DNA of 64,000 bases from a virus. Lineage: Duplodnaviria > Caudoviricetes. Below the pieces are notes generated by a model that was given only the letters and a program-made list of their open reading frames with translations, was not told the DNA's origin and ran no database searches. The DNA lies in IMG/VR virus record IMGVR_UViG_3300033121_001789, positions 45,853 to 109,852 of that record; one strand, 5' to 3'. Shown piece by piece: positions 12,145-32,337 of this stretch; positions within the stretch are counted from its first letter, which is position 1, and the number at the start of each line of letters is the position of its first letter. A program made the translations under genes and the position numbers.

Positions 12145-15100
12145 ATGAAAAACCTCAGACTATTTGAAGAAATGGATACGGAAATAGGGGCAGAAAAGCC
12201 AAAACAAAAAAATTCCGAGAAAACAAAGACTCCAATTTTAGATGCTATTGGAAAAGATTTAACAAAATTAGCGGCTGAAGAAAAATTAGAGCCAGTACAA
12301 GGGAGAGAAGAAGAGATTCAAGAAGTACTTCTAATATTAGGTAGGAAAACAAAAAATAATCCAGTTATAATTGGTGAGCCAGGAGTTGGTAAAACTGCCA
12401 TAGTTGAGGGAATTGCTCAAATGATAGCTAGCAAAAAGTGTCCTCGTGCAATTCAAGGCAAAAGGATTATATACGTTGATATGGGATCTTTAATTGCTGG
12501 AGCTTCTAAACAAGGTGAATTTGAAATGCGTATTAAATCGCTGTTAGAGGAATTAGAAAAAAATAAAGATATACTATTATTTATAGATGAAATTCATATG
12601 ATGGTCAATCCAAATATGTCAATTGATGCTGCAAACATGTTTAAACCAGCTTTGGCTCGTGGTGATATGAGATTGATTGGAGCTACAACTCTAAATGAAT
12701 TTAGAAATTCAATTGAGAAAGATGGTGCACTTGACAGGAGATTTCAAAAAGTTATTATTGAAGAACCAACAAATGAACAAACATTAGCAATTTTAAATCG
12801 AATTAAAAGTAGATATGAAGACTATCATTTAGTTAAATATACTGATGACGCAATACTAGCATGTGTTAAATTAAGTGGGAAATACATAACTGATAGATTT
12901 TTTCCAGATAAGGCTATCGATTTAATGGATGAGGTTGGATCTAAAGCTAGATTATTAGCTCCGGACAATGAGCCTGAGGAAATAGTTAAGTTGGCAAAAA
13001 AAGTTGACGAATTAAAAGCTGAGATCATGGTAAAGACAAAGGCTCAGGATTACCAAAAAGCTGTAGAATTAAGACAAGTTGAAAAAAGACTATCTGAAGA
13101 ATTAGCAGATAAAAGAAGTAAATTAGATATACCAAAGGTCGAAGTAAATAAAAATGATGTTGCCAAAATAATATCTAAAAAAATAGGAGTACCAGCTGAG
13201 AAAATAACATCTGATGAAGGAGAAAAACTTCTAAAAATGGAAGATGATTTAAAATTACAAATAATAGGACAAGATGAAGCGGTTTCCAAAATATCTAAAT
13301 GCATTCGTAGAAGTCGAGCTGGACTAAGAGACCCAAAAAAACCAGCAGTATTTTTATTCTTAGGATCAACAGGGACAGGTAAATGTCATGGAAGAGGGAC
13401 AAAAATACTAATGTATGATGGATCTATTAAAAATGTTGAAGATATTAAAGTAGGAGATCAATTAATGGGTGACGATTCTAAACCTAGAAATGTTCTTTCA
13501 TTAGCCACAGGCAAAGACAATATTTACAAGATAAAATATAAATCTGGTAGCTTTACTTGCAATTCTGAACATATTTTATCACTAAAAGAAACTGGAAAAT
13601 ATAACATAATCAATATACCATTAAATGAATATTTGAAAAAAAATAAAACATTTAAACACACACACAAATTATGGAGCACTAAAGTTGAATTTGAAGAATC
13701 AAAAATAACAATTGATCCTTATATGATCGGACTTTGGCTAGGAGATGGTGATAAAAATAGAGTTTCTATAACAACTGCTGATTCTGAGATAGTGAACTAT
13801 TTGGAAAATACAGCTAAAAATTATAACCTAAAAGTTTATAAAAACAATTTGAAAAATAACAAGAGTGATGTATATTGTCTAACTGGAGAAAACTGGACAA
13901 ACAATAAAAATGAATTACTAAATGAATTTAGGAATTATGGACTAATAGACAAAAATAAAAATTATACCAAATTCATACCCGATATTTATCTACATAATTC
14001 AATAGAAAATAGGAAAAAATTGTTATCTGGACTAATTGATAGTGATGGATATATTTCCAACAATTGTTATCTAATAACCACAAAATATAGTGAACTAGCT
14101 GATCAAATAGTTTATCTATGCAAATCTCTTGGATATATGGCAACAAAGTCAAAAAAAGATGTTAAGAAATATCCAAAAAATACTTATTATAATATAAACA
14201 TATCTGGAGATTTTGATTTAAATTCTTATATTCTTTTAGATAGGAAAAAACACAAATCAAGAAATCAAAAAAAGAATGTTAATTTATTCTCCTTTGATGT
14301 AGAACATATCGGATATGATGACTACTTTGGATTTGAATTAGATGGCAATCATCTATATTTGTTGCAAGATTTTGTTGTAACACATAATACACATACCGTA
14401 AAAACATTAGCTAAATATTTATTTGGATCTGAAGATGCGATGATAAGATTTGATATGAGTGAGTATGGAGAGAAACATAATGTTTCGAGATTAATTGGCT
14501 CCCCTCCAGGATATGTAGGATATGGTGAAGGAGGACAACTAACCGAGAAAGTTAGAAGAAAGCCATATTGTATAATATTATTAGATGAGTTAGAAAAAGC
14601 TCACCCAGAAGTATTAAATGTATTACTACAAGTTTTTGATGATGGACAATTAACTGATGGACAAGGAAGAAAAGTTAATTTCAAAAATACTATTATAATA
14701 ATGACATCCAATATAGGAAGTTCGGCAGTCAAAGATATGAGAATGCCAATGGGGTTCAATGCATCGAAAATTTCTAGAAACGATAATATGAAAGATCTAA
14801 TCAAAAAAGAATTAAAGAAAAAATTAGCTCCAGAATTTATTAATAGAATCGATGATATAATTATATTCTCACAATTACCTAAAGAAAGTATATACAAAAT
14901 TATTGATATTGAAATAAATAAATTATCAAAAAGAGTTGAAGAAATGGGTTATCATATCAGTATAACTGACAATGTTAGAAAATTAATAATGGATAATGGT
15001 TATGATGAGGAAATGGGGGCTAGACCGCTTAAAAGAGCTATTGAAACACTAATAGAAGATCCTATATCTGAAGAAATTTTAAGAGGTGCTATAAAAGATG

Positions 15101-15231
15101 CCATAAATGTTGACTACGATCCACAAACTAAAAATTTAAGTATTAATGGGAATGTTATTAAAGAATCTTTAAAATTTATAAAGAAATTCAGAATGATAAT
15201 TGAGAAAAAATTTCAGAAATTTAAATACTAA
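12145..15231 (+). CDS. ClpC/ClpE-like Hsp100 AAA+ ATPase lacking the N-domain, intein-containing
   Basis: NBD1 GEPGVGKT/LFIDEIH/ALDRRFQ, UVR-like M-domain, NBD2 GSTGTGK[intein]T, SRLIGSPPGYVGY, LDELEK, PMGF loop, GARPL. Confidence 0.93.
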   Translation: MKNLRLFEEMDTEIGAEKPKQKNSEKTKTPILDAIGKDLTKLAAEEKLEPVQGREEEIQEVLLILGRKTKNNPVIIGEPGVGKTAIVEGIAQMIASKKCPRAIQGKRIIYVDMGSLIAGASKQGEFEMRIKSLLEELEKNKDILLFIDEIHMMVNPNMSIDAANMFKPALARGDMRLIGATTLNEFRNSIEKDGALDRRFQKVIIEEPTNEQTLAILNRIKSRYEDYHLVKYTDDAILACVKLSGKYITDRFFPDKAIDLMDEVGSKARLLAPDNEPEEIVKLAKKVDELKAEIMVKTKAQDYQKAVELRQVEKRLSEELADKRSKLDIPKVEVNKNDVAKIISKKIGVPAEKITSDEGEKLLKMEDDLKLQIIGQDEAVSKISKCIRRSRAGLRDPKKPAVFLFLGSTGTGKCHGRGTKILMYDGSIKNVEDIKVGDQLMGDDSKPRNVLSLATGKDNIYKIKYKSGSFTCNSEHILSLKETGKYNIINIPLNEYLKKNKTFKHTHKLWSTKVEFEESKITIDPYMIGLWLGDGDKNRVSITTADSEIVNYLENTAKNYNLKVYKNNLKNNKSDVYCLTGENWTNNKNELLNEFRNYGLIDKNKNYTKFIPDIYLHNSIENRKKLLSGLIDSDGYISNNCYLITTKYSELADQIVYLCKSLGYMATKSKKDVKKYPKNTYYNINISGDFDLNSYILLDRKKHKSRNQKKNVNLFSFDVEHIGYDDYFGFELDGNHLYLLQDFVVTHNTHTVKTLAKYLFGSEDAMIRFDMSEYGEKHNVSRLIGSPPGYVGYGEGGQLTEKVRRKPYCIILLDELEKAHPEVLNVLLQVFDDGQLTDGQGRKVNFKNTIIIMTSNIGSSAVKDMRMPMGFNASKISRNDNMKDLIKKELKKKLAPEFINRIDDIIIFSQLPKESIYKIIDIEINKLSKRVEEMGYHISITDNVRKLIMDNGYDEEMGARPLKRAIETLIEDPISEEILRGAIKDAINVDYDPQTKNLSINGNVIKESLKFIKKFRMIIEKKFQKFKY
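13384..14388 (+). mobile_element. intein (335 aa) with LAGLIDADG homing endonuclease inserted in Walker A of NBD2
   Basis: GK|CHGRGTKILMYDG ... IGLWLGDG ... LSGLIDSDG ... VVTHN|T. Confidence 0.95.
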
Positions 15232-16423
15232 AATATTCGGATATTTTTGATTGAAAAATATCATTAACAAAATCCTTCCATTGTTTTGAAACAATTATCG
15301 AGTCATGTACTGTTATAATCTTAATTTCTGGATTAATTAACATAATTGTTTTAACGACATCATTAAATATTAAATTAGATTCCATTTTCTGTAATTCATA
15401 AGCCAATGTCCTATAATCACCCTTCTCTTTCTTAAAGCTTTTAATAAAATCATAAATGCTTGGAAAAATCCTATGAAAATATTTATCCCATTTTGAATTT
15501 TTATGATTTTTCCCAAAAAAGACCTTATATGTTAGTTCTTTTGCCTGTGATTTATCTTTTAGTTTTAAATTATCCATTAGAAATTGATAATAATTGCCAT
15601 TCTGAACTAAAATTGAAAATAAATTAAATTCAGATTGATCAATTGGATAATTTAAATCTTGTATTAATTTTGATAAAAATAATGGTTGACTATTTGGTAT
15701 ATCAATTTCACAAGTTTCCGTACCCTCGATTAAAAGACAGTTTTTTCGTATAAATGATTTTAAAATTGTGAAATTAGAATGCATTCTACCATAAGTATCA
15801 AAATGATGAAATATGTAACCCTCATTAATTGAGTCCACCGAATATCTATTCCGAGTATAAATTGAATCTCCTTTTAGGGTATCTAAATAAAATATTGTTT
15901 TATCATATTGTATCTTAACAGAATATAGATCAGAAACAAGTTTTTCCCTAACCATAATATCAATAAGATTATTTTCAATTTGATACTTATTGTAAATTTT
16001 TTTAATAAGAATTTTATCAAAATTCTTATATCGTATTATCTCATTTGAAATAATATCTTTATTCAAAATATAAGTTCTCGATATTTTTCCCTTTAAATAG
16101 TTTTTCTTCAACACAATAACTCCATTATCCACTAAATATTGTATATAATAGTTGTATTGATGACCATATTTATCTTTCAATACTGTTGAATTTAACACAA
16201 ATAAATTATCTTTTTTAAAGTAGTACTTCAATATTAAATTATGTACTATATCAATGATATAGTCACTTTTTAGGGAGATTTCCTTATATGTGATTTTCTT
16301 TTTATTCGATAAGTAAGATAGAGAAGAGGGCAAAAATTGTAAGGAATACGAGATTCGTCGATTCTCCTTATTTTTTTTTAAAGTCGATTGTAGCATTAAA
16401 TTTTGAGGTAAAGTTTCTATCAT
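15221..16423 (-). CDS. small PolA/T7-RNAP-superfamily polymerase-like protein
   Basis: GRMHS, EIDIPNSQP (motif A), AKELTYKVFFG (motif B), LQKMES, TVHDSI (motif C). Confidence 0.6.
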   Translation of the reverse strand: MIETLPQNLMLQSTLKKNKENRRISYSLQFLPSSLSYLSNKKKITYKEISLKSDYIIDIVHNLILKYYFKKDNLFVLNSTVLKDKYGHQYNYYIQYLVDNGVIVLKKNYLKGKISRTYILNKDIISNEIIRYKNFDKILIKKIYNKYQIENNLIDIMVREKLVSDLYSVKIQYDKTIFYLDTLKGDSIYTRNRYSVDSINEGYIFHHFDTYGRMHSNFTILKSFIRKNCLLIEGTETCEIDIPNSQPLFLSKLIQDLNYPIDQSEFNLFSILVQNGNYYQFLMDNLKLKDKSQAKELTYKVFFGKNHKNSKWDKYFHRIFPSIYDFIKSFKKEKGDYRTLAYELQKMESNLIFNDVVKTIMLINPEIKIITVHDSIIVSKQWKDFVNDIFQSKISEYFSI

Positions 16424-16468
16424 ATCTATTATAGAAAAAAATAGACTTTCGGGTGAGATGGATTAAAT

Positions 16469-16497
16469 AAAAAAGTCCGAAAATTTCGGACTTTATT
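16469..16497. terminator. intrinsic terminator hairpin
   Basis: AAAGTCCGAA-AAT-TTCGGACTTT with flanking A/T runs. Confidence 0.75.
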
Positions 16498-16521
16498 TTA
16501 TTTCTTAATCTTTTATATTTC

Positions 16522-16833
16522 TTAATCTTTTATTAACTTATTCAACTTTCTATGACGTAAATAAGCCTGATGTATTTCATTAAACTCACTAAGAGAATCT
16601 GGATATATGATTTCACCTTCCTTTCTGTAATAAATTCTATGTTTATGAATATAAACGCCTTTTGTTGAATCTGATTTTACTCTTCGAAAGTAATACCTTT
16701 TTTTGAATATTACCAACTTTCTTATTTTATCATATCGACTTAAAAAAGAAAAAATTTCATAAATTCTAGAATCATATTTGGTTTGCGCATAAACTGGTTG
16801 ACGAAGTTGTGAGAAAGGTTTAATGTCTTCCAC
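16522..16833 (-). CDS. hypothetical protein with C-terminal RxxKL motif
   Basis: ends LRHRKLNKLIKD. Confidence 0.6.
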   Translation of the reverse strand: MEDIKPFSQLRQPVYAQTKYDSRIYEIFSFLSRYDKIRKLVIFKKRYYFRRVKSDSTKGVYIHKHRIYYRKEGEIIYPDSLSEFNEIHQAYLRHRKLNKLIKD

Positions 16834-16834
16834 T

Positions 16835-17122
16835 TTATGATAAAGTTCTTTTTAAAGCTTTACTTGTACTAGACCAGAAATCATTCCAGAAGTCATTTAT
16901 TTGACCATCAAAGTCGTATAAACCAAGAGATTCTAATTGTGCCCACACCAAAGAGAATAACAACTTAATCATTTTCTTTTTCTCTTGTTCAGAAGATGAA
17001 GATATAAATTCCTTATAAAAAATGTGGTCTGAATTAAGTCTAATTATAAGTTTAGTATTTTGTCGTGTTATATCCCAAAACTCACCTGTTTCTCCCCCAT
17101 TATAGAGATTTATATCTAACAA
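16835..17122 (-). CDS. hypothetical protein
   Basis: 95-aa ORF containing IRLNSDHIFY. Confidence 0.55.
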   Translation of the reverse strand: MLDINLYNGGETGEFWDITRQNTKLIIRLNSDHIFYKEFISSSSEQEKKKMIKLLFSLVWAQLESLGLYDFDGQINDFWNDFWSSTSKALKRTLS

Positions 17123-17201
17123 ATTTTTATCGTAGTGTAAATTATCTCTTTTTAAAAATTTTTGTTTTAGGGACTAATAATATACTAATATATACAAGTA
17201 T

Positions 17202-17351
17202 ATGAAAGCTAAAGAAGTGATGGAAAAGTATGACATAAGTAGAAACACTCTATCAACATGGGTTAAAAAAGGTTGGATTCAAGTAGAAATTCTCCCATCT
17301 GGAAGATATAGATATAAAATAATTGAAAGAAAAAATGTTCAAAGCAAGTAA
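17202..17351 (+). CDS. 49-aa MerR/IS607-TnpA-like HTH protein
   Basis: Manual translation MKAKEVMEKYDISRNTLSTWVKKGWIQVEILPSGRYRYK... Confidence 0.7.
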   Translation: MKAKEVMEKYDISRNTLSTWVKKGWIQVEILPSGRYRYKIIERKNVQSK

Positions 17352-18249
17352 AGAAAAGTTATTAAATAATTTTATTGAGAAATGTATGAAAATACACGGA
17401 GATAAATATGACTACTCTTTGGTCAAATATACAAATAACAAAACAAAGGTTAAAATTATTTGTAAAGAACATGGAATTTTTGAACAAAGACCAGATTGTC
17501 ATACACATCAAGGATGTCCTCGTTGTAGCGGGAATGTGAAAATAACAAATAATGAATTCATTTTAAGAGCTAATCAAAAACACCAAATCAAATACGACTA
17601 TTCACTAACAAACTATAAAAATAATAGCACAAAAGTGAAAATAATCTGCCAACAACATGGAATATTTGAACAAAGTCCGAAAGACCATATTAGAGGAATA
17701 GGATGTTGGAAATGTAAGAAGAATTATCCACTAACACAATATGATTTTCTGAGTAAAGCAAAAGAAATACATGGTGATAATTATGATTATTCTAAAAGTG
17801 AATACATATCAGCACTGACTAAATTAACAATAATTTGCAAAAGACATGGTGAGTTTAAACAAACTCCAAATAAACACTTAACACTAGAACAAGGATGTCC
17901 AAGGTGTAAAAAGAGTAAAAAAATGAATGAAATATGCCTAATTTTAGAAAAAAATAATATTTATTATGAAAATGAAAAAACAATTAAAGGATGTGTTTCG
18001 AAAAATAACAAACTATTATATTTCGACATTTTTATAGAAAGTAAGAATTTAGCAATAGAATACGATGGTGAGCAACATTTTAGACCGGTAGAAAACTGGG
18101 GAGGTGAAAAATCACTCAAAGAGGTAAAAGAGAGAGATGCGATAAAAAATCAATTCTGTAAAAATAATAATATAGAATTAATTAGAATATCTTATAGTGA
18201 AAAGATTGAAGAAAGAATGAAAGAAATTATTTCTCAATATCTTTCTTGA
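17323..18249 (+). mobile_element. putative homing endonuclease: three Zn-ribbon repeats + C-terminal PD-(D/E)xK/Vsr-like domain
   Basis: 3x (HGDKYDYS..Y....KVKIIC..HG.F.Q...H..G.GC..C); FDIFI...AIEYDGEQHF...D..KN..C. Confidence 0.85.
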
Positions 18250-19531
18250 TACCCTTTTTGCTCTTTTTTTCTGAACTCATTTTTTGAAATTCATCATAAA
18301 AATCCATCGGATAAACATCACCAGCAGCGTCTGTATCATACTGAATATCAAAGAAGTCTCCAAAGTCCAATAGTCCTGCTTGTGTTACCTGAACTTCTCT
18401 AATTTTATTCAAATAATTATCAATTAAAATTGATATTTTATCAACAAAATGATTAAAAAGAACTATTGTATTTTCAGTAAAAATACCGATTGGTTTCTTT
18501 CTTTTTTTATTAAAAGATCCTAAAATGACCTTAAAACAATATTCTAATTTTTCAGACTCCTCAATTATCTCAAGTGTTAATTTATTATCTATTAACTCTC
18601 GATTTATTTTAAATTTTTCCTTATCAAAAAACTCAGGAACGGCAAAGTCAAAATTTAGAATGTCCTCCTTAACATCAGAAACATACATATTAAATAACTT
18701 TTCTATTAAATAAATATAGATAGAATCCCTCTTATCTCCTTTTAGCTTAATATCATCTAAACTTATAGATTGGCAAAATGTTAAAAAATTTAATAATATT
18801 AAAGTATATACATCAGTGAAATCAGTGGAGTTTTCAGAACTAATTCTTTGATATAGTGGATTTAAAATCTCAAAAGAAATATCCTTATCTTTAACTCTGA
18901 TAATAATCTTCTCCAAGTTTTCCTGAAATGAATCTTTCATTAAGAATGATGATTCAGACTGTGGATTTAATATTTTATAGAAGAAAAATGAAAATGATTG
19001 CTCACCAAATACATATTCTAAATCCTTCTCAGAAGTATTTAAAAAATATTGAATCGCCTCTTTCATTGTATCAGATAATTTACCTTCAAATATTATTGGG
19101 AGTGAGTCAACATTAAATAATCTAGCATATTCAATTAGTTCATCAGTAGTAAATTCATATTTACCGTTTTTATTTATTGATGTAAGAACTAATCCATTTT
19201 TTGGCATTCTTTGATATTGAATGTTAGCTGGAGTCTCATCTGGAAAATATTCAAATAAAAAACTCCAATTTTTAGGCATCAATCCCTTTACTCTTAAATC
19301 AAATGTATTAAAATAATTTATTGCAGGATTATAGTAGTTCTGCATAGCCAAATCTATCAAATTAATAGGATCATTATTTAAACTCTTAGGTATAATTTTA
19401 AATTCTTTTCCATTCCAATTAACCCAAATTTTTGATCCTTGAATATCCTCAAACACAATAATATCATTATCAAAAATATCTGATAAGATATTTGTATCCT
19501 CAACTCCGTTCAATGTGACAATTTTAGCCAT
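18227..19531 (-). CDS. RNA ligase (Rnl2)-like fold protein, motif I lysine absent
   Basis: FEDIQGSKI in place of EKxDGxN, LFEYF, LPIIFEG, LEKIIIR. Confidence 0.5.
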   Translation of the reverse strand: MAKIVTLNGVEDTNILSDIFDNDIIVFEDIQGSKIWVNWNGKEFKIIPKSLNNDPINLIDLAMQNYYNPAINYFNTFDLRVKGLMPKNWSFLFEYFPDETPANIQYQRMPKNGLVLTSINKNGKYEFTTDELIEYARLFNVDSLPIIFEGKLSDTMKEAIQYFLNTSEKDLEYVFGEQSFSFFFYKILNPQSESSFLMKDSFQENLEKIIIRVKDKDISFEILNPLYQRISSENSTDFTDVYTLILLNFLTFCQSISLDDIKLKGDKRDSIYIYLIEKLFNMYVSDVKEDILNFDFAVPEFFDKEKFKINRELIDNKLTLEIIEESEKLEYCFKVILGSFNKKRKKPIGIFTENTIVLFNHFVDKISILIDNYLNKIREVQVTQAGLLDFGDFFDIQYDTDAAGDVYPMDFYDEFQKMSSEKKSKKGIKKDIEK

Positions 19532-19560
19532 ATAATTATAATCTGTTTTAATAATTTGTT

Positions 19561-20358
19561 TTAAAAATATATTTCTGAAAAATCTAATTCGATAAAATGA
19601 TCACCATCATCTATTATATCATCATATTCAATATTAAATTTTGACGATATCCAATTTTTATACATTTTCTTAAAATTATCATAATCTTTATTTGTTAAGT
19701 GATCAATCATAATATAAAAAAATCTATCGAAAAGTATTCTTACCACACCATTATTATTTATAATTAACTCACCTTCTTCTTTTAGCTCCTTAAAAATATC
19801 TTTTGTATAAAATCCATGTTCTATAACAAATTGTTTTAATAAATTTTCAAATATTAAGTCATAATAATCTGAAATACTTCCCCAACATTGTTTTATATAA
19901 ATTCTTCCATATGTCGTTTCATGATATCCATATGAATATTTAACGAATGCTTCCTCTGGACTCGTATCATGAAACGATCCGGAAACTTCATATGTATTAT
20001 CCAAATTATAAAGTAAAATATCAACCACAGCCCCTATTGAAGAATAGGTATCAATATTTTGAAATATTATATCCCTATTTTCTTTAATCTGACCCATAGA
20101 AAGATTATGAATTTTTAAATTTTTATCTATATCATACCAAATTTCCTCCGAATCTACCCTAGTGCCTCTCTTAGAAATTTGTGACCAATTAGAAAACCAA
20201 ACGTCATCACATAAACTATTTATAAATGAATGAAACTTCGAAAAAAAATCTTTATTTTCCTCATACAAATCATCACCAATATTTTCAATAGTAGATTCTT
20301 TCAAATCATCATATCTATATGATTCCTTAATGAAATCTAAAAAACTCTTTTTAATCAT
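19561..20358 (-). CDS. hypothetical protein with CTS-like N-terminus
   Basis: MIKKSFLDFIKES; late-promoter-like motif upstream. Confidence 0.7.
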   Translation of the reverse strand: MIKKSFLDFIKESYRYDDLKESTIENIGDDLYEENKDFFSKFHSFINSLCDDVWFSNWSQISKRGTRVDSEEIWYDIDKNLKIHNLSMGQIKENRDIIFQNIDTYSSIGAVVDILLYNLDNTYEVSGSFHDTSPEEAFVKYSYGYHETTYGRIYIKQCWGSISDYYDLIFENLLKQFVIEHGFYTKDIFKELKEEGELIINNNGVVRILFDRFFYIMIDHLTNKDYDNFKKMYKNWISSKFNIEYDDIIDDGDHFIELDFSEIYF

Positions 20359-22988: not shown

Positions 22989-22991
22989 AAA

Positions 22992-23672
22992 TTAACACAA
23001 TAATTCTATTTTACCTCTTGAAAATTCCTTGAAAGAGCATTGCTTATTAGTGGAATGATCAATAACTAAATCTTCTTTAATACGATAAGATCTTTTTTTA
23101 TCCGATCGAGAACCCATACCAATTTGGTGTAATCGATTTCTATATTCTTTTTCGTCCCATTTTTCTTGTTCAATAGACTTTAACTTTTCCTCTAACCTTT
23201 TCCAAGCCAATTCTTCATTTTTCAATTGATCTCGAGTATCCTGGCATTTTATTTGAATTCCAGATGGTCTATGTGTCAAGATAACACAACTTGATACCTT
23301 ATTAACATTTTGTCCACCCTTGCCACTACTTCTAGTATATTGTCTATCTACATCATTTCGATTTAAATGAAAGTGTAATTGATTATCCGGATCAATTAAA
23401 GCAACTGTAATAATAGAAGTTTGTGTCCTTCCTCTTTTTTCTGTCGATGGTACTCTTATCCATCTATGTGGACCAATTTCATTTTTAAATAGATTTGAAA
23501 CATTTTTCCCACTCAGTCAAATTGAGGCAAATCCATTCCTATCTTCAATAATATCATATTTTAATCCATGATTTCTTGCAGTTTTAACATAAATATTTCT
23601 AAGATCCTCAACTAACATCTTAGAATCTAATCCGCCCTCAGCGGCTCTAATTTCTATAATGATTTTTTCCAT
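22992..23672 (-). CDS. class I peptide chain release factor, RF1-type (PxT), lacking domain 1, with in-frame TGA at codon 52
   Basis: Single frame from ATG 23672: MEKIIIEIRAAEGGLDS...FASI*LSGK...EIGPHRWIRVPSTEKRGRTQTS...SGKGGQNVNK...CQDTRDQLKN...RSDKKRSY; TGA at 23517-23519. Confidence 0.9.
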
Positions 23673-24842: not shown

Positions 24843-25524
24843 TTACTATATAGTCAATTTTACGATCTCTTTGCTCTGAAATATATTCATTATACCCATA
24901 CATATAGTCATCCTCAAAGATAAATATAACCTCCGGATAGAAAACCTCAAACTTTAAATCACAAGTAATTGATGTATATCCGGTAACTGATCCAGGTCTA
25001 AAAGTATCATTAAAATGTTGTATATTTGATATATCAACATTAATAGACTTAAATGATACTATGTGATTTGACTTCCAAGTCTCAAATGGATTAACATAGA
25101 CATCAATATAATCAAATTTTCCTATCGGATAAATCGTTTTACCATTCAAATTACTTAGCGAATTATGTGTGAAATGTAAAGAATCTTGTAAATCTGCTGC
25201 TATTCTAGCTCCAGAAACAATTTTCGAGTTTTTGTCTAATGTAGGTATTAAATATAAATTATCAAATTTAGAAGGATTGTGTGATTTTCCTCTAAAATCT
25301 AAAAATCTCTTCTTACCATGATTGAAAATAGATGCAAATATCTTTTTCTCAATACACTGTGAAATTTCATCAATCAAAATTTGATTGAAATATGATTCAA
25401 CATCAATATTAAAAAATTGAGAAGCTACAGGATTAGAAACTGAAACTTGTACTCTTTCGGGCATAACCCCTGATACAATTGATTTATTAAAACAAGAAAA
25501 CTTAAAGTTATCACTTGATATCAT
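24751..25524 (-). CDS. truncated, divergent paralog of the major capsid protein
   Basis: NQILIDEISQCIEKKIF, IVSGARIAADL and IYPIGKFDYIDVYVNPF align by eye to gp23 of this window. Confidence 0.65.
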   Translation of the reverse strand: MISSDNFKFSCFNKSIVSGVMPERVQVSVSNPVASQFFNIDVESYFNQILIDEISQCIEKKIFASIFNHGKKRFLDFRGKSHNPSKFDNLYLIPTLDKNSKIVSGARIAADLQDSLHFTHNSLSNLNGKTIYPIGKFDYIDVYVNPFETWKSNHIVSFKSINVDISNIQHFNDTFRPGSVTGYTSITCDLKFEVFYPEVIFIFEDDYMYGYNEYISEQRDRKIDYIVNEDGRFKTGQDNQIGIYTEFELGSRYHHYI

Positions 25525-25906
25525 TTATTTCATTTATTTTATTAGTTGTTGAATATCCTCCTATTTTGCTAAAAAATATAATATTCGGCACATTTTCAGA
25601 TCCAATGACTTTTTTGTCCTTATAATCATCCCCTAGTATTATATAATGCGGATTCCATAATTTAATTTGATCCTCTAATTCTTTATCTGTGCCAAAACTA
25701 ACAACAGAATCAACATATTTAATACTTTCCATCATTACTATTCTATCAGATAATTTATTAATAGGTCTAGATGTACCTTTAAGTTCTTTAACTCTATTGT
25801 CTTTATCAATACCAACACGAACAGTCCCATATGAGTTTGCGAATTTTAATAACTCGATGTGTCCTCGATGTAAAATATCAAAAGTACCATTTACCCAAAC
25901 TCTCAT
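25511..25906 (-). CDS. cytidylyl/adenylyltransferase (RfaE domain II / TagD-like)
   Basis: NGTFDILHRGH, KGTSRPIN, GDDY, YSTT. Confidence 0.9.
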   Translation of the reverse strand: MRVWVNGTFDILHRGHIELLKFANSYGTVRVGIDKDNRVKELKGTSRPINKLSDRIVMMESIKYVDSVVSFGTDKELEDQIKLWNPHYIILGDDYKDKKVIGSENVPNIIFFSKIGGYSTTNKINEINDIK

Positions 25907-26280
25907 ATTTGTGAATCTCCTTTAAAAATTCTATAAGAATCACTATCAAAATGTTGTGTTGATACTTCAAAAACAACACCATCTGTAATAGCCTCCAATT
26001 GATGTGGCTGACCTGGATATTGTCGAACAGAATCACCCACATTTAATAGAACCTCACAAATAGTAGCTTTATCTGTATCTATATAACGATAAATAAATTG
26101 ACCCTCATTTACATACCAAGTCTCATCCTTTATCATATGATAATGCATTGAAAATTTACAACCTTTTTTAAAAACAAGTAATTTCCCACAATAGAGGTTG
26201 TTATTTGCTATAATAATTTCATGTCCCCATCCCTTAGGAACCTTACACTCATCACATTTTATAATCTTTGGTAATTCCAT
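25903..26280 (-). CDS. cupin (sugar isomerase-like)
   Basis: VPKGWGHE, SMHYHMIKDETW, PHQL, FEVSTQH. Confidence 0.85.
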   Translation of the reverse strand: MELPKIIKCDECKVPKGWGHEIIIANNNLYCGKLLVFKKGCKFSMHYHMIKDETWYVNEGQFIYRYIDTDKATICEVLLNVGDSVRQYPGQPHQLEAITDGVVFEVSTQHFDSDSYRIFKGDSQI

Positions 26281-26283
26281 AAT

Positions 26284-27231
26284 TTATATTTTATTAAAAT
26301 TTTCATCATAATTCATTATCAGTAATTCAGTTCCTTTTAATTGTTCTCCTTTTAGTTGGTGATTATTTCCACCCATCGCCGATCTGCGCACAACATCTCT
26401 TTGAATCCATCTATATTTCTCTCTTGGTAGTAATTCATCCAAAAGAGGAAAGTAATAATATGATAATGACCATTTTGATTTGGTTGTTTTAATTAATTCT
26501 ATTAATCTTCTATGTGATGCCGGTCCAAAAACACCATCAGCATCAGCACCATACCAAAATAATCTTTTAGAATCATCATCTTTTTCACCATTAAATCTAG
26601 CATATGGCGGGTCCAAATAAATATATGTACTTTCAGAATCATATTTTTTTATTAATTCCTCGAAGTCTGTACTATACCAATGTGTGATAGAATTTAATTT
26701 ATCAGTATAAGTATTTTTCTTTAATTTATTAATTAATACACTTAATTTAAGTTTATCTTGTTTTTTAATATACCCGGAGAATCCGCCACCCCTAGGATAA
26801 ACTGAGGAAAAACTCGAAGTTATTAAAAAAGCATATATAGCTGCCCTTTCAAAGTCTCCTAATTCGAAATCCTTATTATCAAGAAAATCATTTTTTGTAT
26901 ATTCCCTATAAACAGATTTATAAAAATCCCATTTCAAATTTACATCTGTTTCATTAGTATATAAAATTCCCCCAGTAGACAATAATTTATTAATTGAATC
27001 TAATAATTTATCTGGTGTAGCGGCGCACTTATATAAGTTTGCTTGATGTTTATTAATATCATTAAAAATTACATTTTCAAAAACCATATCAGGATCATCC
27101 ATAAATGTTGCAAAACTACCTGAAAATGGCTCAATATATGTTTTGATATTATTCTTTGGGATGTTTGGATTTATAAGATGTTTGACAAAGTCATTAGAAG
27201 ATTTAGATCCGAAGTAAGATATTAAAGACAT
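26284..27231 (-). CDS. Dam-like (D12 class) DNA adenine methyltransferase
   Basis: SYFGSKS, YIEPFSGS, FNDIN, YLDPPY, ELLIMNY. Confidence 0.9.
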   Translation of the reverse strand: MSLISYFGSKSSNDFVKHLINPNIPKNNIKTYIEPFSGSFATFMDDPDMVFENVIFNDINKHQANLYKCAATPDKLLDSINKLLSTGGILYTNETDVNLKWDFYKSVYREYTKNDFLDNKDFELGDFERAAIYAFLITSSFSSVYPRGGGFSGYIKKQDKLKLSVLINKLKKNTYTDKLNSITHWYSTDFEELIKKYDSESTYIYLDPPYARFNGEKDDDSKRLFWYGADADGVFGPASHRRLIELIKTTKSKWSLSYYYFPLLDELLPREKYRWIQRDVVRRSAMGGNNHQLKGEQLKGTELLIMNYDENFNKI

Positions 27232-27314
27232 AATTAAAGTTTAGAAATTATAGATTAAAAAATAAATATGTTTAGGTAATCAATGGGAAGACAAATTGAT
27301 TTAATATATAAAAT

Positions 27315-27974
27315 ATGATAATTTATAAAATAACAAATTTAATTAATAACAAAGTATATATAGGACAAACAACCGAAAGTCTTCAAAAAAGATGGAAAAG
27401 ACATACATCCGAATACCATGAAAAAAATATGTATATATCAAGAACAATATCTAAATATGGCGAAAAAAATTTTATTATAGAAAAGATATGTGAATGTTAT
27501 TCTTTACAAGAATTAAATGAAAAAGAAATTTTTTATATAAATGAATATGATTCTCTATCACCGAATGGGTACAATCTTGTTGTAGGTGGTAATAATAGTA
27601 AAATGAGCGATGAAACAAAATTAAAAATATCCAATAGCCACAAAAAAAGATATCTAGATGGTAAAGTTATCTCTGAAGAAACTAGGAAAAAATTGTCAGA
27701 ATCACATAAAGGATGGATTCCATCAGAAGAAACTCGTCAAAAATGGAGAGATGCCTTCTCTGGAAAAAAACCATCCGAGAAAACAAGAATCGGTGCCATA
27801 TCACATCATCAAAAAACATATACCTTTGAAAGTCCAGATGGTGAAATAATTACTTTTACAAATATGAAAGATTTTTGTAAAAAAAATAATTTATGCAATT
27901 CTAAATTATGTTTGGTCGCATCTGGTAAAAGAAACCACCATAAAGGATGGAAATTACACAAATCACATTTGTAA
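27315..27974 (+). mobile_element. GIY-YIG homing endonuclease with NUMOD3 repeats
   Basis: MIIYKITNLINNKVYIGQT, SEETRKKLSESHKG. Confidence 0.9.
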
Positions 27975-28436
27975 TTTTTTAATATCATTACGAATCCTCA
28001 TTAGAAGATTACCTAAGTTGTTTTCTCCTTTATTATTACACTTATTACAAGTGCAAACTCCCCACCAGGTATCGTGCCAATAATTTCCCTCAATTAACAT
28101 CTCATCTCCTGTCTGCAATAATAGTTCTTGTAGGTTTTTAATCTTGAATTTTTCTCTTAATCCAAATTCCATAACCTTTAGACGAATTGAGTCCCAATCT
28201 GGTCTTAATTTAAAACCTCTACCCATTCTTTTAACCTGACCCGGAGTTAGAACTTTCGATACTAATTGTCGAGTATCTTCAAGTGTATAAAATTGACCAT
28301 CAATTATTTGTCCTTCTTTTATTTTCATAGCAACATAATAATGTTCCACAGATGGATAAACAATACCCTGATAAGTTATCTCACAAGGATAAAAATTTGA
28401 TAAAAAAAACCATCGACCTTTAAATGAATCTATCAT
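27963..28436 (-). CDS. NADAR family protein (YbiA-like)
   Basis: FLSNFY, SVEHYY, DWD, KF...LLLQTG...LIEGN...WG...GENNLG.LLM.IR. Confidence 0.9.
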   Translation of the reverse strand: MIDSFKGRWFFLSNFYPCEITYQGIVYPSVEHYYVAMKIKEGQIIDGQFYTLEDTRQLVSKVLTPGQVKRMGRGFKLRPDWDSIRLKVMEFGLREKFKIKNLQELLLQTGDEMLIEGNYWHDTWWGVCTCNKCNNKGENNLGNLLMRIRNDIKKLQM

Positions 28437-28482
28437 AATAATTTTATATCTTTAATTAATAATAATGTTTAATATATAATTA

Positions 28483-29643
28483 ATGACAAAAGAAGAATTC
28501 AAAAATATATTCATAGAATTAACAAACTACACAATTCCATTTGGAAAAGAAAAATTATTAGAAAAACATCTACCAAAGGGATTTAAGAAAGATAATATTG
28601 GAAATTACTACTATGAAATAGGAAATTCTGAAACATTATTTACATCACATTTAGATACATTTTCAAAAAAATACGAAAAGGTTAATCATGTAATTGACGA
28701 AGATGATCCATATATTATATCCACAGACGGTAAAACTATCTTAGGTGGGGATAATAAATTAGGATGTACTATTTTGTTTGGCATGATTAAAAATTCTATA
28801 CCAGGAACTTATTACTTTTTTCTTGGAGAAGAGCCAATTTTAAGTGGTGGATTATGGGGTTCAAGAAATGCATTAGAAAGTAATTTTGAATATTTCAAAA
28901 AATTTAAAAGATGTATCGCATTCGATAGAAAGCAGTATGGATCAATTGTTGTTCGTCAAATGGGTCGTATGTGTTGTTCTAAAGAATTCGCTAGTGAAAT
29001 TGCCAAACAATTAAAAATTGGTGGAATTAATTGGGACGAATCTGTTGGATTTGGATATTATACAGATACCGCCGTTTTCATGGATGTAATACCAGAATGT
29101 ACAAACATATCAGCAGGTGGATTTAATGAACATTATAAGAGTGAATGGGTCGATCTAAATTATACATATAATGTTTATAAGTCAGCATTAAAAATTAAAT
29201 GGGAGGAACTACCGACTAATAGAAAGTTAGAAGTTAGATTTTCAGATGAGGAAAAAGAAACAATAAATAAAGACTTCAAGAAATTTCAACAAATAAAGAT
29301 ATATAAAGAAATAGAATCTATGACAGAATTAGTAGATCTATCCAAAACGAGAGACATATCTAAAAATGGAGAAAGATATTTAACATTCTCAAAATGGCTT
29401 GAAGATTATGACTTGGATATAACTTTGTCAAATAGTAAAATTATTATAAATGGTAAAGAATTATCAATGAATCAGTTAAAAAGATTAATTCTTACAGAAT
29501 TCAGGGAAGATATACTCGATCAAATAAAGTATTATATAGAAATGAAAGAAAAAAAGGAATTAGATAAGATACTTTATATCTTTGGATTCAAAACAATACC
29601 AGAAATAATTAAATTTCTTAAAACAAAAAAAAGAGGAAAATAA
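28483..29643 (+). CDS. M28/M20-clan zinc peptidase (paralog 2)
   Basis: SHLDT, GGDNKLG, GEEP, AFDRK, NEH. Confidence 0.8.
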   Translation: MTKEEFKNIFIELTNYTIPFGKEKLLEKHLPKGFKKDNIGNYYYEIGNSETLFTSHLDTFSKKYEKVNHVIDEDDPYIISTDGKTILGGDNKLGCTILFGMIKNSIPGTYYFFLGEEPILSGGLWGSRNALESNFEYFKKFKRCIAFDRKQYGSIVVRQMGRMCCSKEFASEIAKQLKIGGINWDESVGFGYYTDTAVFMDVIPECTNISAGGFNEHYKSEWVDLNYTYNVYKSALKIKWEELPTNRKLEVRFSDEEKETINKDFKKFQQIKIYKEIESMTELVDLSKTRDISKNGERYLTFSKWLEDYDLDITLSNSKIIINGKELSMNQLKRLILTEFREDILDQIKYYIEMKEKKELDKILYIFGFKTIPEIIKFLKTKKRGK

Positions 29644-29656
29644 TTTCCTCTTTTTT
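29626..29656. terminator. bidirectional terminator between peptidase and tmRNA
   Basis: AAAAAAGAGGAAA-ATAA-TTTCCTCTTTTTT. Confidence 0.7.
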
Positions 29657-29659
29657 GAT

Positions 29660-29712
29660 AAACCGTTCAGATATTTACCCTGTTTAAAACTGTTCAGATA
29701 TTTACCCTGTCT
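29660..29712. repeat. 27-bp-period tandem duplication (core GTTCAGATATTTACCCTGT x2)
   Basis: Identical 19-mers at 29665-29683 and 29692-29710. Confidence 0.85.
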
Positions 29713-29721
29713 ATCGTTTGG

Positions 29722-30089
29722 TGGTGGAGGCGGAGGGTTCGAATCCTCGTCTTCCTCAGTTAGATACAACCAATCATTTACAAGCTTAGTTAATTTTTCT
29801 AAACTAACAAAATAATAAATTTTTTCGACTCAAAAAATATTTATAAAAAACTATCACGATTTTTATCTGTTGGATTCAGAGGTAAATTTCTTGAAATATC
29901 AATTAAGCCATTTCAAACTCATTCACCATGAGTAAGTTGTTTTGTAGGGCAGCTACTAAATCTTCACTGGTTCCCACTTCGTTTGTTTTGCCGATTACGA
30001 CATTCGCCATTTAATTTTTAATCGGTTATATGACAATCCGATACTTGCTCAATTACACCTAGGACCGCGAATCAATACATTACGCCCCC
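29722..30089 (-). ncRNA. ssrA: tmRNA, 368 nt; tag (A)GKTNEVGTSEDLVAALQNNLLMVNEFEMA*
   Basis: 5' GGGGGCG pairs with 3' CGCCUCC-ACCA with G3:U. T-arm GAGG-AUUCGAAC-CCUC. pk1-like pseudoknot (UCGG/CCGA; UUGUCAU/AUGGCGA). Resume context UAAUC-GGC 11 nt later. Tag ORF 29992-29903. Confidence 0.92.
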
Positions 30090-30140
30090 ATATTTCTACA
30101 AAGATACAATTATATATTAAATTATCAAAATGTTTTTTTT

Positions 30141-31940
30141 CTAAAATGGAGCAGAATCATCAAATTTATCCACAAGTGAGTATCTATCATCATCCTCATC
30201 GTCGTCATCAGAATAATCTTCCTCAGCATCTTCCCAAGTAAATGAAAATTTCAATATTGGGAAACCATCCTTACTTTCATACAACTCCACCTCAACATTA
30301 TACTTTGAAAGTAATTCTTCTTTAACACGACCAACAACATCAAATGCTTTTAAAAGTGTTGAAATTTTCTCTCGGTGTTTTAAAAATGTATAAACATTCA
30401 AATCATATTCTTCAGATGTTACATTAACATCTAATCCATTAGAAACAAACATTTGTTCAACCCAATAACATAATTCCTCAATATCATCTTTAAATCCACC
30501 TGATTCCTCCAAAGAATGTAATGATTCATATGTAGTATCATCATCAACACCATAATAGTCATGATATTTTTTAAAAACAGGATCAACTGTTAATTCAATC
30601 TTAATTATACTATCATCAAATGTGAGTGTCGGATCCATACTATGTATATTAAACATCTCACTTAAATTTAAAAAATCATCCTGTACTAATTCTACATCGG
30701 ATTCGTCCATATCTATTTTAAGAAATTCTATTCCATAAGATGACATCAATTTTATATCTAAATTAAAAGCACATGACCGAAAATCATTTAAAAAATCCTT
30801 AAAATAATGTAAAAATAAATCACTAAATCCAATCTTTCTCTTAACTGTTAAATTCTCCCAATCAACCCCAACAGAAGCTTTTGCGAGCCTTTCAAGGAAA
30901 GAAATATTCTGAGATTCTCTATTTGTATGTTCATCAAAATATCCAACAGATATATTTGTACACTCTGGTATTTGGTCAATAAAAGATGCAGAGTCGGTAT
31001 AAATTCCAGTATCGTCCAAATTAAATTTCATTCCATTTTTAGAATATTCAGCCGCTAATGAATGTGCAAATTCATCTGAACAACATTCTGCAAACATTTG
31101 TGATGTAATAATTGAATAATAATTTCTCCTATCAAATGATACGCATTTTTTCAATCCTTTAAGATGCTCAAATGATTCAAATTCTTTTGAGACTTTACCA
31201 GATCCAATTCCACCTCTTTCTTCACCAATAAAGAAATAATAAACACCAGGTACATTATGAGCAATCATGTACAATAGTACAGTAACTCCTGATTTATCAT
31301 CGGCTCCTAAGATAGTTGTACCATCGCTAACAATATGCTCTTGTCCATCTATCATTCTGCTATATAAAACCACATTTGTTTGCTTCCTATCTGCGGTATC
31401 AAGGTGACAAGTAAACATAGTTGTTGATTTACCTACTATTTTATAATAGTTTCCAAATTTATCTTTTGTTAGACCTATCTGTGATATCAAAGGATAAACA
31501 TCATCTTCTTGTGGATGTGGATATGTTTTAGTCACCAATGATATGAAAGTATCTCGAACATTTTTAGGATTAAACTTAAATTCTGGAACCACAATTAACG
31601 TTGAATTACCAAAAGACTTGATTGGTTTTTTTTGTTTTTTTGCCTTTAATGTATTATACTTGATTGTAAATTTTTTGATCTCATCTTCAGTAAATTGATC
31701 AGGAAAAAATTTACGAATCATATATCCAACTTTTATCGGATTATACTTCCCACCTATTTTAGCATTAAATGACCAATCATGTCTCGACATATCTAATTGC
31801 TCAATTCCCAAAGTGTCTGCGGCAATTGAAATATCATTCTCAACTCTCATAAGTTTATCTGATATCTTATCCTCTATATCATCAAAAATATCATACAAAT
31901 CATCAGTATATTTTATGGGCATTGGTCTATTCTTAATCAT
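30141..31940 (-). CDS. M28/M20-clan zinc peptidase (paralog 3) with N- and C-terminal extensions
   Basis: CHLDT, GADDKSG, GEERG, SFDRR, DEH; acidic tail. Confidence 0.85.
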   Translation of the reverse strand: MIKNRPMPIKYTDDLYDIFDDIEDKISDKLMRVENDISIAADTLGIEQLDMSRHDWSFNAKIGGKYNPIKVGYMIRKFFPDQFTEDEIKKFTIKYNTLKAKKQKKPIKSFGNSTLIVVPEFKFNPKNVRDTFISLVTKTYPHPQEDDVYPLISQIGLTKDKFGNYYKIVGKSTTMFTCHLDTADRKQTNVVLYSRMIDGQEHIVSDGTTILGADDKSGVTVLLYMIAHNVPGVYYFFIGEERGGIGSGKVSKEFESFEHLKGLKKCVSFDRRNYYSIITSQMFAECCSDEFAHSLAAEYSKNGMKFNLDDTGIYTDSASFIDQIPECTNISVGYFDEHTNRESQNISFLERLAKASVGVDWENLTVKRKIGFSDLFLHYFKDFLNDFRSCAFNLDIKLMSSYGIEFLKIDMDESDVELVQDDFLNLSEMFNIHSMDPTLTFDDSIIKIELTVDPVFKKYHDYYGVDDDTTYESLHSLEESGGFKDDIEELCYWVEQMFVSNGLDVNVTSEEYDLNVYTFLKHREKISTLLKAFDVVGRVKEELLSKYNVEVELYESKDGFPILKFSFTWEDAEEDYSDDDDEDDDRYSLVDKFDDSAPF

Positions 31941-31950
31941 TTCTTATATA

Positions 31951-32337
31951 TTAAATATTAATATTAATTTCTTCAGCGTTCTTATAATCAACTTTTACCT
32001 GTCCAATATTCATTTCTGGTAATTTCTTAACGAATTTTGACTTACAACAAATAACTATACAATTTCCAGTAACTTTTGAATTTTTAGCAACAATTTCAGC
32101 TGCTTTATGTTTCACCTCTTTTGTTATCAATCTATCTTTTTGTCTAATAATAGCATGACACCCTGGTTTTCCCTTAACATGGAACCATAAATCCTCAGGA
32201 TCTGCCATAATTGTTGTTAAATAATCATTTGATTTCCCATCCCTACCAAAAATTAGTGTATAATCATCTATAATTATCGTTCTTAAATTTGGAAATTTAT
32301 CCTTGGACTCGTTAAAAGAAATAAAATTCTTTATCAT
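31951..32337 (-). CDS. stand-alone NFACT-R (DUF814) RNA-binding domain protein
   Basis: GRDGKSNDYLT...DLWFHVKGKPGCHAII...AAEIVAKNSK...KFVKK...GQV. Confidence 0.85.
   Translation of the reverse strand: MIKNFISFNESKDKFPNLRTIIIDDYTLIFGRDGKSNDYLTTIMADPEDLWFHVKGKPGCHAIIRQKDRLITKEVKHKAAEIVAKNSKVTGNCIVICCKSKFVKKLPEMNIGQVKVDYKNAEEININI

Follow-up and report, generated by a model that had tools for sequence, protein, structure and literature searches.

The DNA studied here is a 64,000-nucleotide window (IMG/VR virus record IMGVR_UViG_3300033121_001789, positions 45,853 to 109,852) that forms part of a phage contig of 109,852 bases with 28% G+C. Our subject is the group of genes related to ribosome rescue and protein turnover between positions 12145 and 32337 of this window, which includes a gated release factor (RF) lacking domain 1, a transfer-messenger RNA (tmRNA), a stand-alone NFACT-R protein, a ClpC-type unfoldase and two peptidases. 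A sequence-only reading had suggested that these genes are a coordinated countermeasure to host defences. The stretch is, in our view, probably part of a distributed translation-maintenance gene set of a Bacteroidota-infecting megaphage, rather than one operon or a co-inherited system. Positions below refer to the window unless stated otherwise.

RESULTS

Origin of the DNA and genomes compared

The window comes from a Mahaphage-clade megaphage of wastewater or activated sludge, of whose genome it covers a fragment. Its capsid protein, of the gp23 type, shares 65% identity with that of the 635- to 642-kb uncultured phages LR745206 and LR756502, and about 32% with that of Lak phages. The former two belong to the Mahaphage-clade genomes of Al-Shayeb et al. 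2020 (PMC7162821), for which Bacteroidetes hosts have been predicted. At least nine studies of wastewater and activated sludge, dated 2015 to 2025, have data sets with nearly identical sequence, and Logan contigs assembled from metatranscriptomic libraries span the whole stretch, though such contigs reveal neither transcription, RNA ends nor expression level. For comparison we used five complete relatives (W01 to W05, with W02 as the nearest complete relative of the window), four more distant complete RF-bearing phages (G numbers), and a set of related contigs and loci (L numbers).

The standard genetic code applies to the contig, since TGA closes 19 of the 110 long open reading frames (ORFs). 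An alternative code was considered and ruled out by these stops together with the coding density (ORFs of at least 100 amino acids make up 93% of the contig under translation table 11) and the fact that the RF gene is the only one in the 110-kb contig with a mid-gene TGA.

A release factor without domain 1 is gated by a stop codon

22992 to 23672, minus strand: RF1-type class-I release factor without domain 1, 226 codons (NCBIfam RF1, 1.6e-54), with a PST tripeptide and a GGQ motif
23517 to 23519, minus strand: in-frame TGA at codon 52, context AUU UGA CUG, a recoding site kept in relatives

The ORF list holds only a 95-residue fragment with the RF-1 domain, but the same frame runs upstream through a single TGA to an ATG at position 23672. 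The product matches only positions 105 to 332 of the 347 positions of the NCBIfam RF1 profile, and its best match in the Protein Data Bank (PDB) is Thermus thermophilus RF1, residues 107 to 316. Because the alignment covers only RF1 residues from about 107 to 316, domain 1 is absent. The protein scores 185 bits with the RF1 model (equivalog cut-off, 400), 130 bits with RF2 and 79.9 bits with PrfH (cut-off, 166.65). The earlier description of a readthrough-gated RF without domain 1 thus agrees with the 226-codon frame, its one TGA and the retained PST and GGQ motifs.

Homologues in four of the five complete relatives (W01 to W04) all carry an in-frame TGA. It mostly occupies the same alignment column, A/S-S-I-UGA-L/I, in W01, W02, W04 and many viral contigs, with extra TGAs at two other columns, and a divergent strain contig from a 2015 study has retained it as well. 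A profile-guided scan of viral contigs returned 172 RF relatives, of which we scored 87 loci, made up of the 80 best ones and seven known from earlier searches. Every one of the 87 lacks domain 1, has an N-terminal extension of at most 32 residues, and is of the PxT type wherever the decoding motif can be read; the tripeptide is PPT in the relatives and PST in the window. About 85% of these loci are gated, with the gate within the first 35 to 75 codons or so. The gate takes the form of one or two in-frame UGAs, UGA plus UAG, UAG alone, or a +1 frameshift; the frameshift sites comprise CUU-UGA (22 loci), CUU-UAG (7 loci) and also CUU-UAA, in many cases with an AGGGG element in front. On the RF tree the different kinds of gate intermingle, which implies that the gate is maintained while its form changes. 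In the window, the AUU UGA CUG context continues in frame 0, and a Shine-Dalgarno (SD) element with a CUU-UGA-C slippery site is missing. None of the six tRNAs of the contig is a suppressor tRNA, with the proviso that unusual tRNAs could escape the search.

Domain-1-less RFs are not confined to phages. Copies on chromosomes or in metagenome-assembled genomes, from Myxococcota and a small number of further phyla, come with GGAGG-N3-4-CUU-UGA/UAG-C cassettes. The window RF is one of a large family found in phages and Myxococcota, gated in about 85% of the scored viral loci. Among loci L206 to L285, Myxococcota chromosomes were seen to hold PPT-type domain-1-less RFs with frameshift cassettes, e.g., Minicystis rosea CP016211 near 5.21 Mb, and several Patescibacteria possess open RFs of the PST type whose N-terminal extension is absent or only 78 residues long. 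We also considered His-to-Gln and Gln-to-Ile changes of decoding residues as a mark of UGA-reading factors, in which case the UGA gate would be autoregulatory, and rejected this, since UGA-gated, UAG-gated and open frames each include either residue state.

The arrangement is reminiscent of the +1 frameshift of prfB, the RF2 gene, where an early in-frame stop codon in a release-factor gene likewise couples synthesis to termination efficiency; the GGAGG-N3-4-CUU-UGA-C element of family members in other phages and in Myxococcota resembles the SD-N3-CUU-UGA-C element of prfB. In contrast to RF2, the phage factor is of the RF1 (PxT) type and lacks domain 1, and the gate in the window would act by UGA readthrough without a slippery site. 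The phage family, moreover, also uses UAG and rarely UAA, whereas UAG never occurs in prfB. PrfH (RF-H), a domain-1-less RF2 homologue paired with RtcB2 that rescues ribosomes in non-standard states, shares with the phage protein its class-I RF homology and the lack of domain 1. The phage factor is, however, nearer to RF1 (185 bits) than to PrfH (80 bits), keeps PxT, and is not adjacent to RtcB. In a 2025 survey that covered over 12,000 bacterial genomes, prfA was without programmed frameshifts and the prfB motif never contained UAG (PMC12421855), and no description of a gated, domain-1-less RF1-type family was found in the literature that we searched.

A tmRNA clade with a long conserved tag

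29722 to 30089, minus strand: one-piece tmRNA (Rfam RF00023, 41.7 bits, E 1e-13), acceptor stem GGGGGCG/CGCCUCC with G3-U70, encoded ACCA end
29903 to 29992, minus strand: tag frame, resume codon GGC after GUAAUC, 29 codons and UAA, tag GKTNEVGTSEDLVAALQNNLLMVNEFEMA
30099 to 30106, minus strand: TAnnTTTG promoter box of the Bacteroidota type, TATCTTTG, 9 nt before the tmRNA 5' end

The tmRNA was found by a permissive Rfam search; its 41.7 bits lie below the Rfam gathering score of 47, and both ARAGORN and Rfam at the gathering score reported zero genes. Homologous RNAs with 68 to 69% identity were nevertheless recovered by blastn and nhmmer at the syntenic sites of W01 and W02, where an Rfam search gave zero matches. 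A homologue occurs in 27 of 36 related viral contigs, i.e., at every locus of sufficient length. Among 25 distinct sequences, the acceptor stem takes the forms GGGGAUG/CAUCUCC, GGGGGUG/CACCUCC, GGGGGCG/CGCCUCC and GGGGAAG/CUUCUCC with an invariant G3-U70 pair, and the T stem occurs in six variants that are all paired. These homologues and their covariation validate the tmRNA, and G3-U70 gives it alanine identity. Most members have a GGCAGUA T-loop and end in ACAA without encoded CCA, while the window has UUCGAA and an encoded ACCA.

The tag frame that follows GUAA(U/A)C measures exactly 29 codons in 24 of the 25 homologues and 28 in the remaining one, which has an in-frame 3-nt deletion. There are 20 distinct, related tags; third-position changes dominate and the other frames are closed, a pattern that indicates coding selection on the 29-codon frame. 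The earlier call of a tmRNA with an atypical tag therefore survives its sub-threshold Rfam score.

A TAnnTTTG box lies 9 to 23 nt upstream of most homologues, and hairpins with T-run terminators lie past their 3' ends. Because of this host-type box upstream and the terminator hairpins downstream in the relatives, the tmRNA appears to be a transcription unit of its own, presumably read by a Bacteroidota-type polymerase.

With the tmRNA/SmpB system of trans-translation the phage RNA shares the one-piece layout, the tRNA-like domain with G3-U70, a resume codon after U-A-A-U-C and a tag that ends at UAA, and SmpB is encoded in complete relatives. It differs from RF00023 members in falling below the gathering score, in being invisible to ARAGORN and, in most members, in the GGCAGUA T-loop and the lack of encoded CCA, and from other tmRNAs in its 29-codon tag, which ends in ATV, AVA or EMA instead of LAA. 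In W05, a distant relative, the tag is short and ordinary, GNNAEMRMAA. Huge phages with RFs, tmRNA and SmpB have been reported before (Al-Shayeb et al. 2020, PMC7162821). Since the whole clade described here escapes standard detectors, phage trans-translation is being under-counted, and the protease that deals with the long, conserved tag would be worth looking for.

NFACT-R, peptidase and NADAR genes adjoin the tmRNA

31951 to 32337, minus strand: stand-alone NFACT-R protein, 128 residues (Pfam NFACT-R_1, 1.3e-11, 45.5 bits against a cut-off of 29.8)
30141 to 31940, minus strand: M20 (PepT-like) metallopeptidase, 599 residues (phrog_4191, 8.9e-62; weak NCBIfam PepT-like match)
28483 to 29643, plus strand: M20/M28-type peptidase paralogue, 386 residues (phrog_4191, 7.5e-55), a copy specific to the window's lineage
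27963 to 28436, minus strand: NADAR-domain protein (Pfam NADAR, 8.7e-25), a conserved neighbour of the tmRNA
33139 to 34884, minus strand: Gp23-type major capsid protein (Pfam Gp23, 6e-29), anchor of the conserved block

The identification of a stand-alone NFACT-R domain held up above the Pfam cut-off. A profile of the protein finds the NFACT-R domain of Bacillus subtilis RqcH best (1e-18) and CCDC25 next (3e-11), and its orthologues keep W-F-H53 and G-x-H61 invariant. Its 128 residues hold the NFACT-R domain only, in keeping with the 16 bits that it reaches with the RqcH_arch model (cut-off, 400). By these profile matches the solo domain is RqcH-derived. It shares the motif D-x-W-[FL]-H...G-S/C-H with RqcH/NEMF as well as with Jlp2 and CCDC25, and it resembles Jlp2 in being a solo domain. 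Unlike RqcH/NEMF, it has no NFACT-N, helix-hairpin-helix (HhH) or coiled-coil part, so alanine tailing in the manner of RqcH is impossible. From CCDC25 it differs in that its sequence is nearer to the bacterial RqcH domain. Jlp2, a solo NFACT-R protein of yeast, is reported to act on stalled ribosomes as a peptidyl-tRNA hydrolase and to require His44 for this activity (preprint, 10.1101/2025.09.04.673968). Judging from motif spacing rather than a direct alignment, H53 of the phage protein may correspond to this position. The report of peptide release by a solo NFACT-R protein gives meaning to one that is fixed beside a tmRNA.

The two phrog_4191 paralogues do flank the tmRNA, as the sequence-only reading had it. 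Compared with PepT (3gb0), the 599-residue protein retains H-x-D (FTCHLDT), GADDK, GEE and a C-terminal His (DEH), while family cut-offs are not reached. The family has at least three copies in the window and four in W02; a separate copy at the place of the 386-residue protein was not found in W01, W02 or related contigs. The most constant neighbour of the tmRNA is the NADAR gene, which keeps its place next to the RNA in inverted segments, too (L159, L161 and L176).

As a separate observation, an N terminus of about 10 residues, M-x-x-[IL]-K-K-[FY]-x-x-F-[NT]-E-[SGA], recurs in similar form on many unrelated proteins encoded by the contig and may be a capsid-targeting sequence, as it resembles that of the T4 type with its site for the prohead protease. 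Its carriers include the products of 31951 to 32337, 51438 to 51935, 62973 to 63548 and 39729 to 40058 and of contig ORFs upstream of the window.

A ClpC-type unfoldase without N-domain is interrupted by an intein

12145 to 15231, plus strand: ClpC-type double-AAA+ unfoldase without N-domain (Pfam AAA_2, 9e-61; AAA_lid_9; ClpB_D2-small), ClpP-docking loop PMGF at residues 877 to 880
13384 to 14385, plus strand: intein with LAGLIDADG homing endonuclease, 334 residues (Pfam Hom_end_hint, 2.6e-23; Hom_end; LAGLIDADG_3)

The unfoldase gives partial NCBIfam matches to models of the ClpB, ClpA and ClpC classes that begin only at about profile position 140 to 150. It starts at the linker before D1. 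Both AAA+ modules have their Walker motifs, GEPGVGKT and LLFIDE in D1 and GSTGTGK/T (after splicing) and IILLDE in D2, and an alignment with the W01 and W02 orthologues places PMGF at the position of ClpA IGL and ClpC VGF. The intein, which the sequence-only reading had missed, sits exactly in the D2 Walker A motif (GSTGTGK/C...HN/T); the W01 and W02 orthologues lack it and are joined exactly at GK/T. With ClpC/ClpA-ClpP the protein has in common the two AAA+ modules, a short, UVR-like middle region of the ClpC type, an [LIVM]-G-[FL] docking loop and the D2-small domain. It differs in its missing N-terminal Clp repeat domain and its intein-split D2 P-loop, and ClpP is not on the contig. The Clp N-domain is the place where adaptors of the MecA/ClpS type bind, and the description of an adaptor-less, ClpC-like unfoldase with a ClpP loop fits the missing N-domain and the PMGF motif.

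Two less certain candidates

7980 to 8522, minus strand: candidate 2H phosphoesterase, THITF and LHLTL motifs (Pfam 2H-SAK, E 0.0099, 16.6 bits against a cut-off of 27)
18227 to 19531, minus strand: conserved protein of 434 residues, possibly the ligase-like item of the sequence-only reading (protein-atlas feature scores of 0.94 to 0.95 to viral RNA-ligase, PF09414, clusters)

A 2H phosphoesterase had been placed just upstream. Two HxT motifs do support the product of 7980 to 8522, but the gene lies outside 12145 to 32337, about 3.6 kb upstream of ClpC, and its Pfam score is below the cut-off; the directly upstream ORF, 11556 to 12092, was rejected because it has zero HxT motifs.

The proposed ligase-like fold fared worse. 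The 434-residue protein has zero Pfam matches, a PDB profile search gave chance matches only, and a single-sequence AF2 model was unusable (pLDDT 34). Its invariant EDIQGSK has Asp at the position that, going by motif I of Rnl2, we take to be that of the catalytic Lys. Atlas feature similarity thus leaves a weak lead, and the protein is probably not an active ligase. Another ORF, 10209 to 10751, with a KRDG motif, was rejected as too small, out of range and without matches.

Only a short block behind the capsid gene is conserved

W01 and W02 share with about 36 viral contigs the order 718-residue protein, capsid protein, in some cases a 206-residue protein, NFACT-R, peptidase, tmRNA, NADAR and Dam. 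Four loci, which represent three distinct arrangements, have the tmRNA-NADAR-Dam segment in inverted orientation, with the tmRNA staying with NADAR. Conserved synteny is limited to the series capsid gene, NFACT-R, peptidase, tmRNA and NADAR. The other genes are scattered: in W02, ClpC is at 441 kb and the RF at 107 kb, about 200 kb and 120 kb away from the block at 225 to 245 kb. The window genes on either side of ClpC, and likewise those on either side of the RF cassette, directly adjoin each other in W02, so that ClpC and the RF must have been inserted separately in the window's lineage; L053, 73% identical, shares the RF placement. In the window the rescue genes are on both strands and interleaved with unrelated genes for a Dam methylase, a cupin, a cytidylyltransferase and homing endonucleases. 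This accords with the earlier remark that the genes are not one operon, co-directional, contiguous and co-inherited genes being limited to NFACT-R, peptidase and tmRNA.

SmpB, ClpP and RtcB, which the sequence-only reading had proposed to look for elsewhere in the genome, were not found on the 110-kb contig. Among the complete relatives, W01 to W04 all have the RF, SmpB and ClpC, while ClpP is present in W01 to W03 and W05 but not in W04, and RtcB only in W04, where it is not adjacent to the RF. NFACT-R is found only in W01, W02 and the window's clade, and W05 has only tmRNA and ClpP. Among the four more distant phages, SmpB occurs in two (G001 and G004), a ClpC-type gene in two, and a tmRNA above the cut-off in three. 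Hence, the nine complete RF-bearing or related phages hold SmpB, ClpC, ClpP, NFACT-R and RtcB in differing combinations. Co-occurrence among relatives had been named as a check; it is confirmed for the series NFACT-R, peptidase, tmRNA and NADAR behind the capsid gene, in the genomes that have it, while the RF and ClpC lie elsewhere in W01 to W03 and SmpB, ClpC, ClpP, NFACT-R and RtcB vary in presence. The reading of a coordinated countermeasure was to be given up if the genes proved to be independently distributed among relatives and gave no protection against translation-targeting defences, and the variable repertoires go some way towards this.

Some of the scattered genes do form close pairs: RF and ClpC at 5 kb in W04, SmpB and ClpC at 5 kb in W03, RF and ClpP at 5 kb in W02, and ClpC and tmRNA at 6.5 kb in G003.

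DISCUSSION

A probable distributed translation-maintenance gene set

The individual parts described above are real and have a plausible functional theme with weak positional support, so that cooperation is plausible while an obligate joint system is unsupported. As the sequence-only reading had recognized, they echo trans-translation, RF-type rescue and ribosome-associated quality control (RQC), to which complete relatives add SmpB and ClpP. With these two, the trans-translation and Clp sets can be completed. A gene set distributed over the genome, of which the RF and ClpC were relocated into the block in the window's lineage, is the account that we favor.

How such a set might work can be outlined. 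The tmRNA and phage SmpB, encoded elsewhere in complete relatives, would free stalled ribosomes and add a 30-residue, phage-specific tag that ends in small hydrophobic residues. Intein splicing would restore the D2 P-loop of ClpC, and the spliced unfoldase, lacking the N-domain, might dock via PMGF on ClpP of phage or host to unfold and degrade substrates without MecA-type adaptors. Full-length short RF would be made only when ribosomes read through UGA-52, so its supply would track termination failure and, following the logic of prfB, may rise when UGA termination, and thereby RF2 activity, is poor. Domain 1 of canonical release factors contacts the L11 stalk region; the short RF would then act as a peptidyl-tRNA hydrolase without this stalk-contacting domain. 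NFACT-R could bind peptidyl-tRNA/ribosome complexes and may itself release peptides, by analogy with yeast Jlp2.

Several observations weigh against this account. Concerning readthrough, RNAalifold on 19 homologues gave zero pairs of conserved RNA structure downstream of the UGA, and ARAGORN detected neither a suppressor tRNA (UCA) nor tRNA-Trp among the 46 tRNAs of W02, with the limit that unusual tRNAs could escape it. An RF1-type (PxT) factor is expected to read UAA and UAG and not UGA, and for this reason the UGA gate is not obviously autoregulatory. From the opposite side, the parts may be more linked than the word distributed implies. W01 to W04 have five independent pairs within 8 kb against 1.9 expected (P of about 0.04, by a rough, post hoc simulation of uniform placement among related genomes), and two independent relocations have brought ClpC and the RF within 8 to 18 kb of the tmRNA; together, these hint at selection for co-location. 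Finally, the contig is only part of a genome, and SmpB and ClpP of the window phage are assumed from its relatives.

Alternative explanations

In one coordinated countermeasure, as originally proposed against host defences that cut mRNA or tRNA or block termination, tmRNA/SmpB, the gated RF and NFACT-R would clear three kinds of stalled ribosomes, and ClpC-ClpP and the peptidases would remove the resulting products. Each of the three rescue routes does have parts here, and complete relatives add SmpB and ClpP. In addition, different pairs have come close in different genomes (W04, W03, W02 and G003), the RF and ClpC reached their places near the tmRNA block independently of each other in the window's lineage, the 29-residue tag, conserved and atypical, might serve as a private degron, and a solo NFACT-R protein can act as a release factor (10.1101/2025.09.04.673968). 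However, the genes occupy both strands among unrelated ones, are spread over hundreds of kilobases in W01 to W03, and have reached the neighbourhood of the tmRNA through two separate insertions. NFACT-R is moreover restricted to the window's subclade, two of the four distant complete RF-bearing phages lack SmpB and two lack ClpC, and the proximity statistic is post hoc and drawn from related genomes. What remains of the proposal is its list of rescue-route parts, together with SmpB and ClpP in relatives; a single coordinated countermeasure seems unlikely to us, in view of the dispersed genes and variable repertoires.

Another possibility is a head module, in which NFACT-R, the M20 peptidases and perhaps ClpC would help to build the virion, or would be carried in it and injected, instead of rescuing ribosomes; their adjacency to the tmRNA would then reflect only how late genes are organized. 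In every case NFACT-R and the peptidase come after the capsid gene and share its strand, NFACT-R orthologues keep the N terminus MIKKFKSFNE/S, which resembles a T4 capsid-targeting sequence with its prohead-protease site and recurs on the contig, the peptidase family is multi-copy (at least three in the window, four in W02), and AAA+ Clp-type chaperones of jumbo phages have been proposed as aids in virion assembly (PMC7824862). Yet the putative N-terminal motif is not kept in the ClpC orthologues of W01 and W02, and NFACT-R is otherwise known only from proteins linked to ribosomes or tRNA (PMC4075521). Packaging and a role in translation are, furthermore, not mutually exclusive. We consider such a head module improbable, and more so than the countermeasure.

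Least credible of all is manipulation of the genetic code, with the gated RF1-type factor as a device for stop-codon reassignment or timing, made once a UGA suppressor is active and favoring UAA/UAG termination, rather than a rescue factor. Some RF homologues have two in-frame UGAs, which argues for efficient suppression over leaky readthrough, and one extra UGA appears at what we take to be a conserved Trp position of RF1, as in Escherichia coli. Modules for code change that include RF1 are likewise present in TGA-recoded Jade phages (10.1101/2021.08.26.457843). Still, with the standard code about 92% of the contig and of the relatives' loci is coding, TGA closes 17% of ORFs and interrupts no other gene, ARAGORN lists neither a tRNA-Sup(UCA) nor a tRNA-Trp for W02, and the +1 frameshift sites or UAG at the same place in relatives would not be served by a UGA suppressor.

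Beyond the distributed set that we favor, a bolder version can be formulated: a self-contained phage pathway for rescue and disposal, in which the gated RF1 and the His-bearing solo NFACT-R would be two unconventional peptidyl-tRNA hydrolases for different stalled states, the 29-residue tag a private degron, ClpC-ClpP an adaptor-independent protease and the M20 enzymes recycling peptidases, with the RF switched on by failing termination. This is a long shot at present. If true, it would amount to a viral take-over of all three bacterial rescue routes; the system-level idea is attractive and remains unproven. What goes beyond the tmRNA, SmpB and RF genes already known from huge phages is the gated RF, the hidden tmRNA clade and NFACT-R fixed beside the tmRNA. 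The RF family in particular offers a testable case of gene control that senses termination and of RF function without domain 1.

Other features of the region

Two homing-endonuclease genes of the GIY-YIG/NUMOD type (27315 to 27974 and 4318 to 5283, both on the plus strand) and an ORF for a treble-clef zinc-finger/DUF2726-like protein (17323 to 18249) are not present in the syntenic W02 block, which suggests that the region is prone to mobile insertions. The family-B DNA polymerase gene at 630 to 2201 (minus strand) encodes an exonuclease domain and only the start of a polymerase domain and may be split or interrupted. Thymidylate synthase (5275 to 6390, minus strand) has 371 residues against a 266-position profile that is matched end to end, implying an insertion of about 100 residues. 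ARAGORN does not list tRNA-Cys among the 46 tRNAs of W02. Finally, a tRNA cluster at contig positions 3758 to 4735, about 41 kb before the window, comprises three tRNA-Glu genes, one each for Tyr and Met, and an odd tRNA-like gene for which a four-base anticodon was called.

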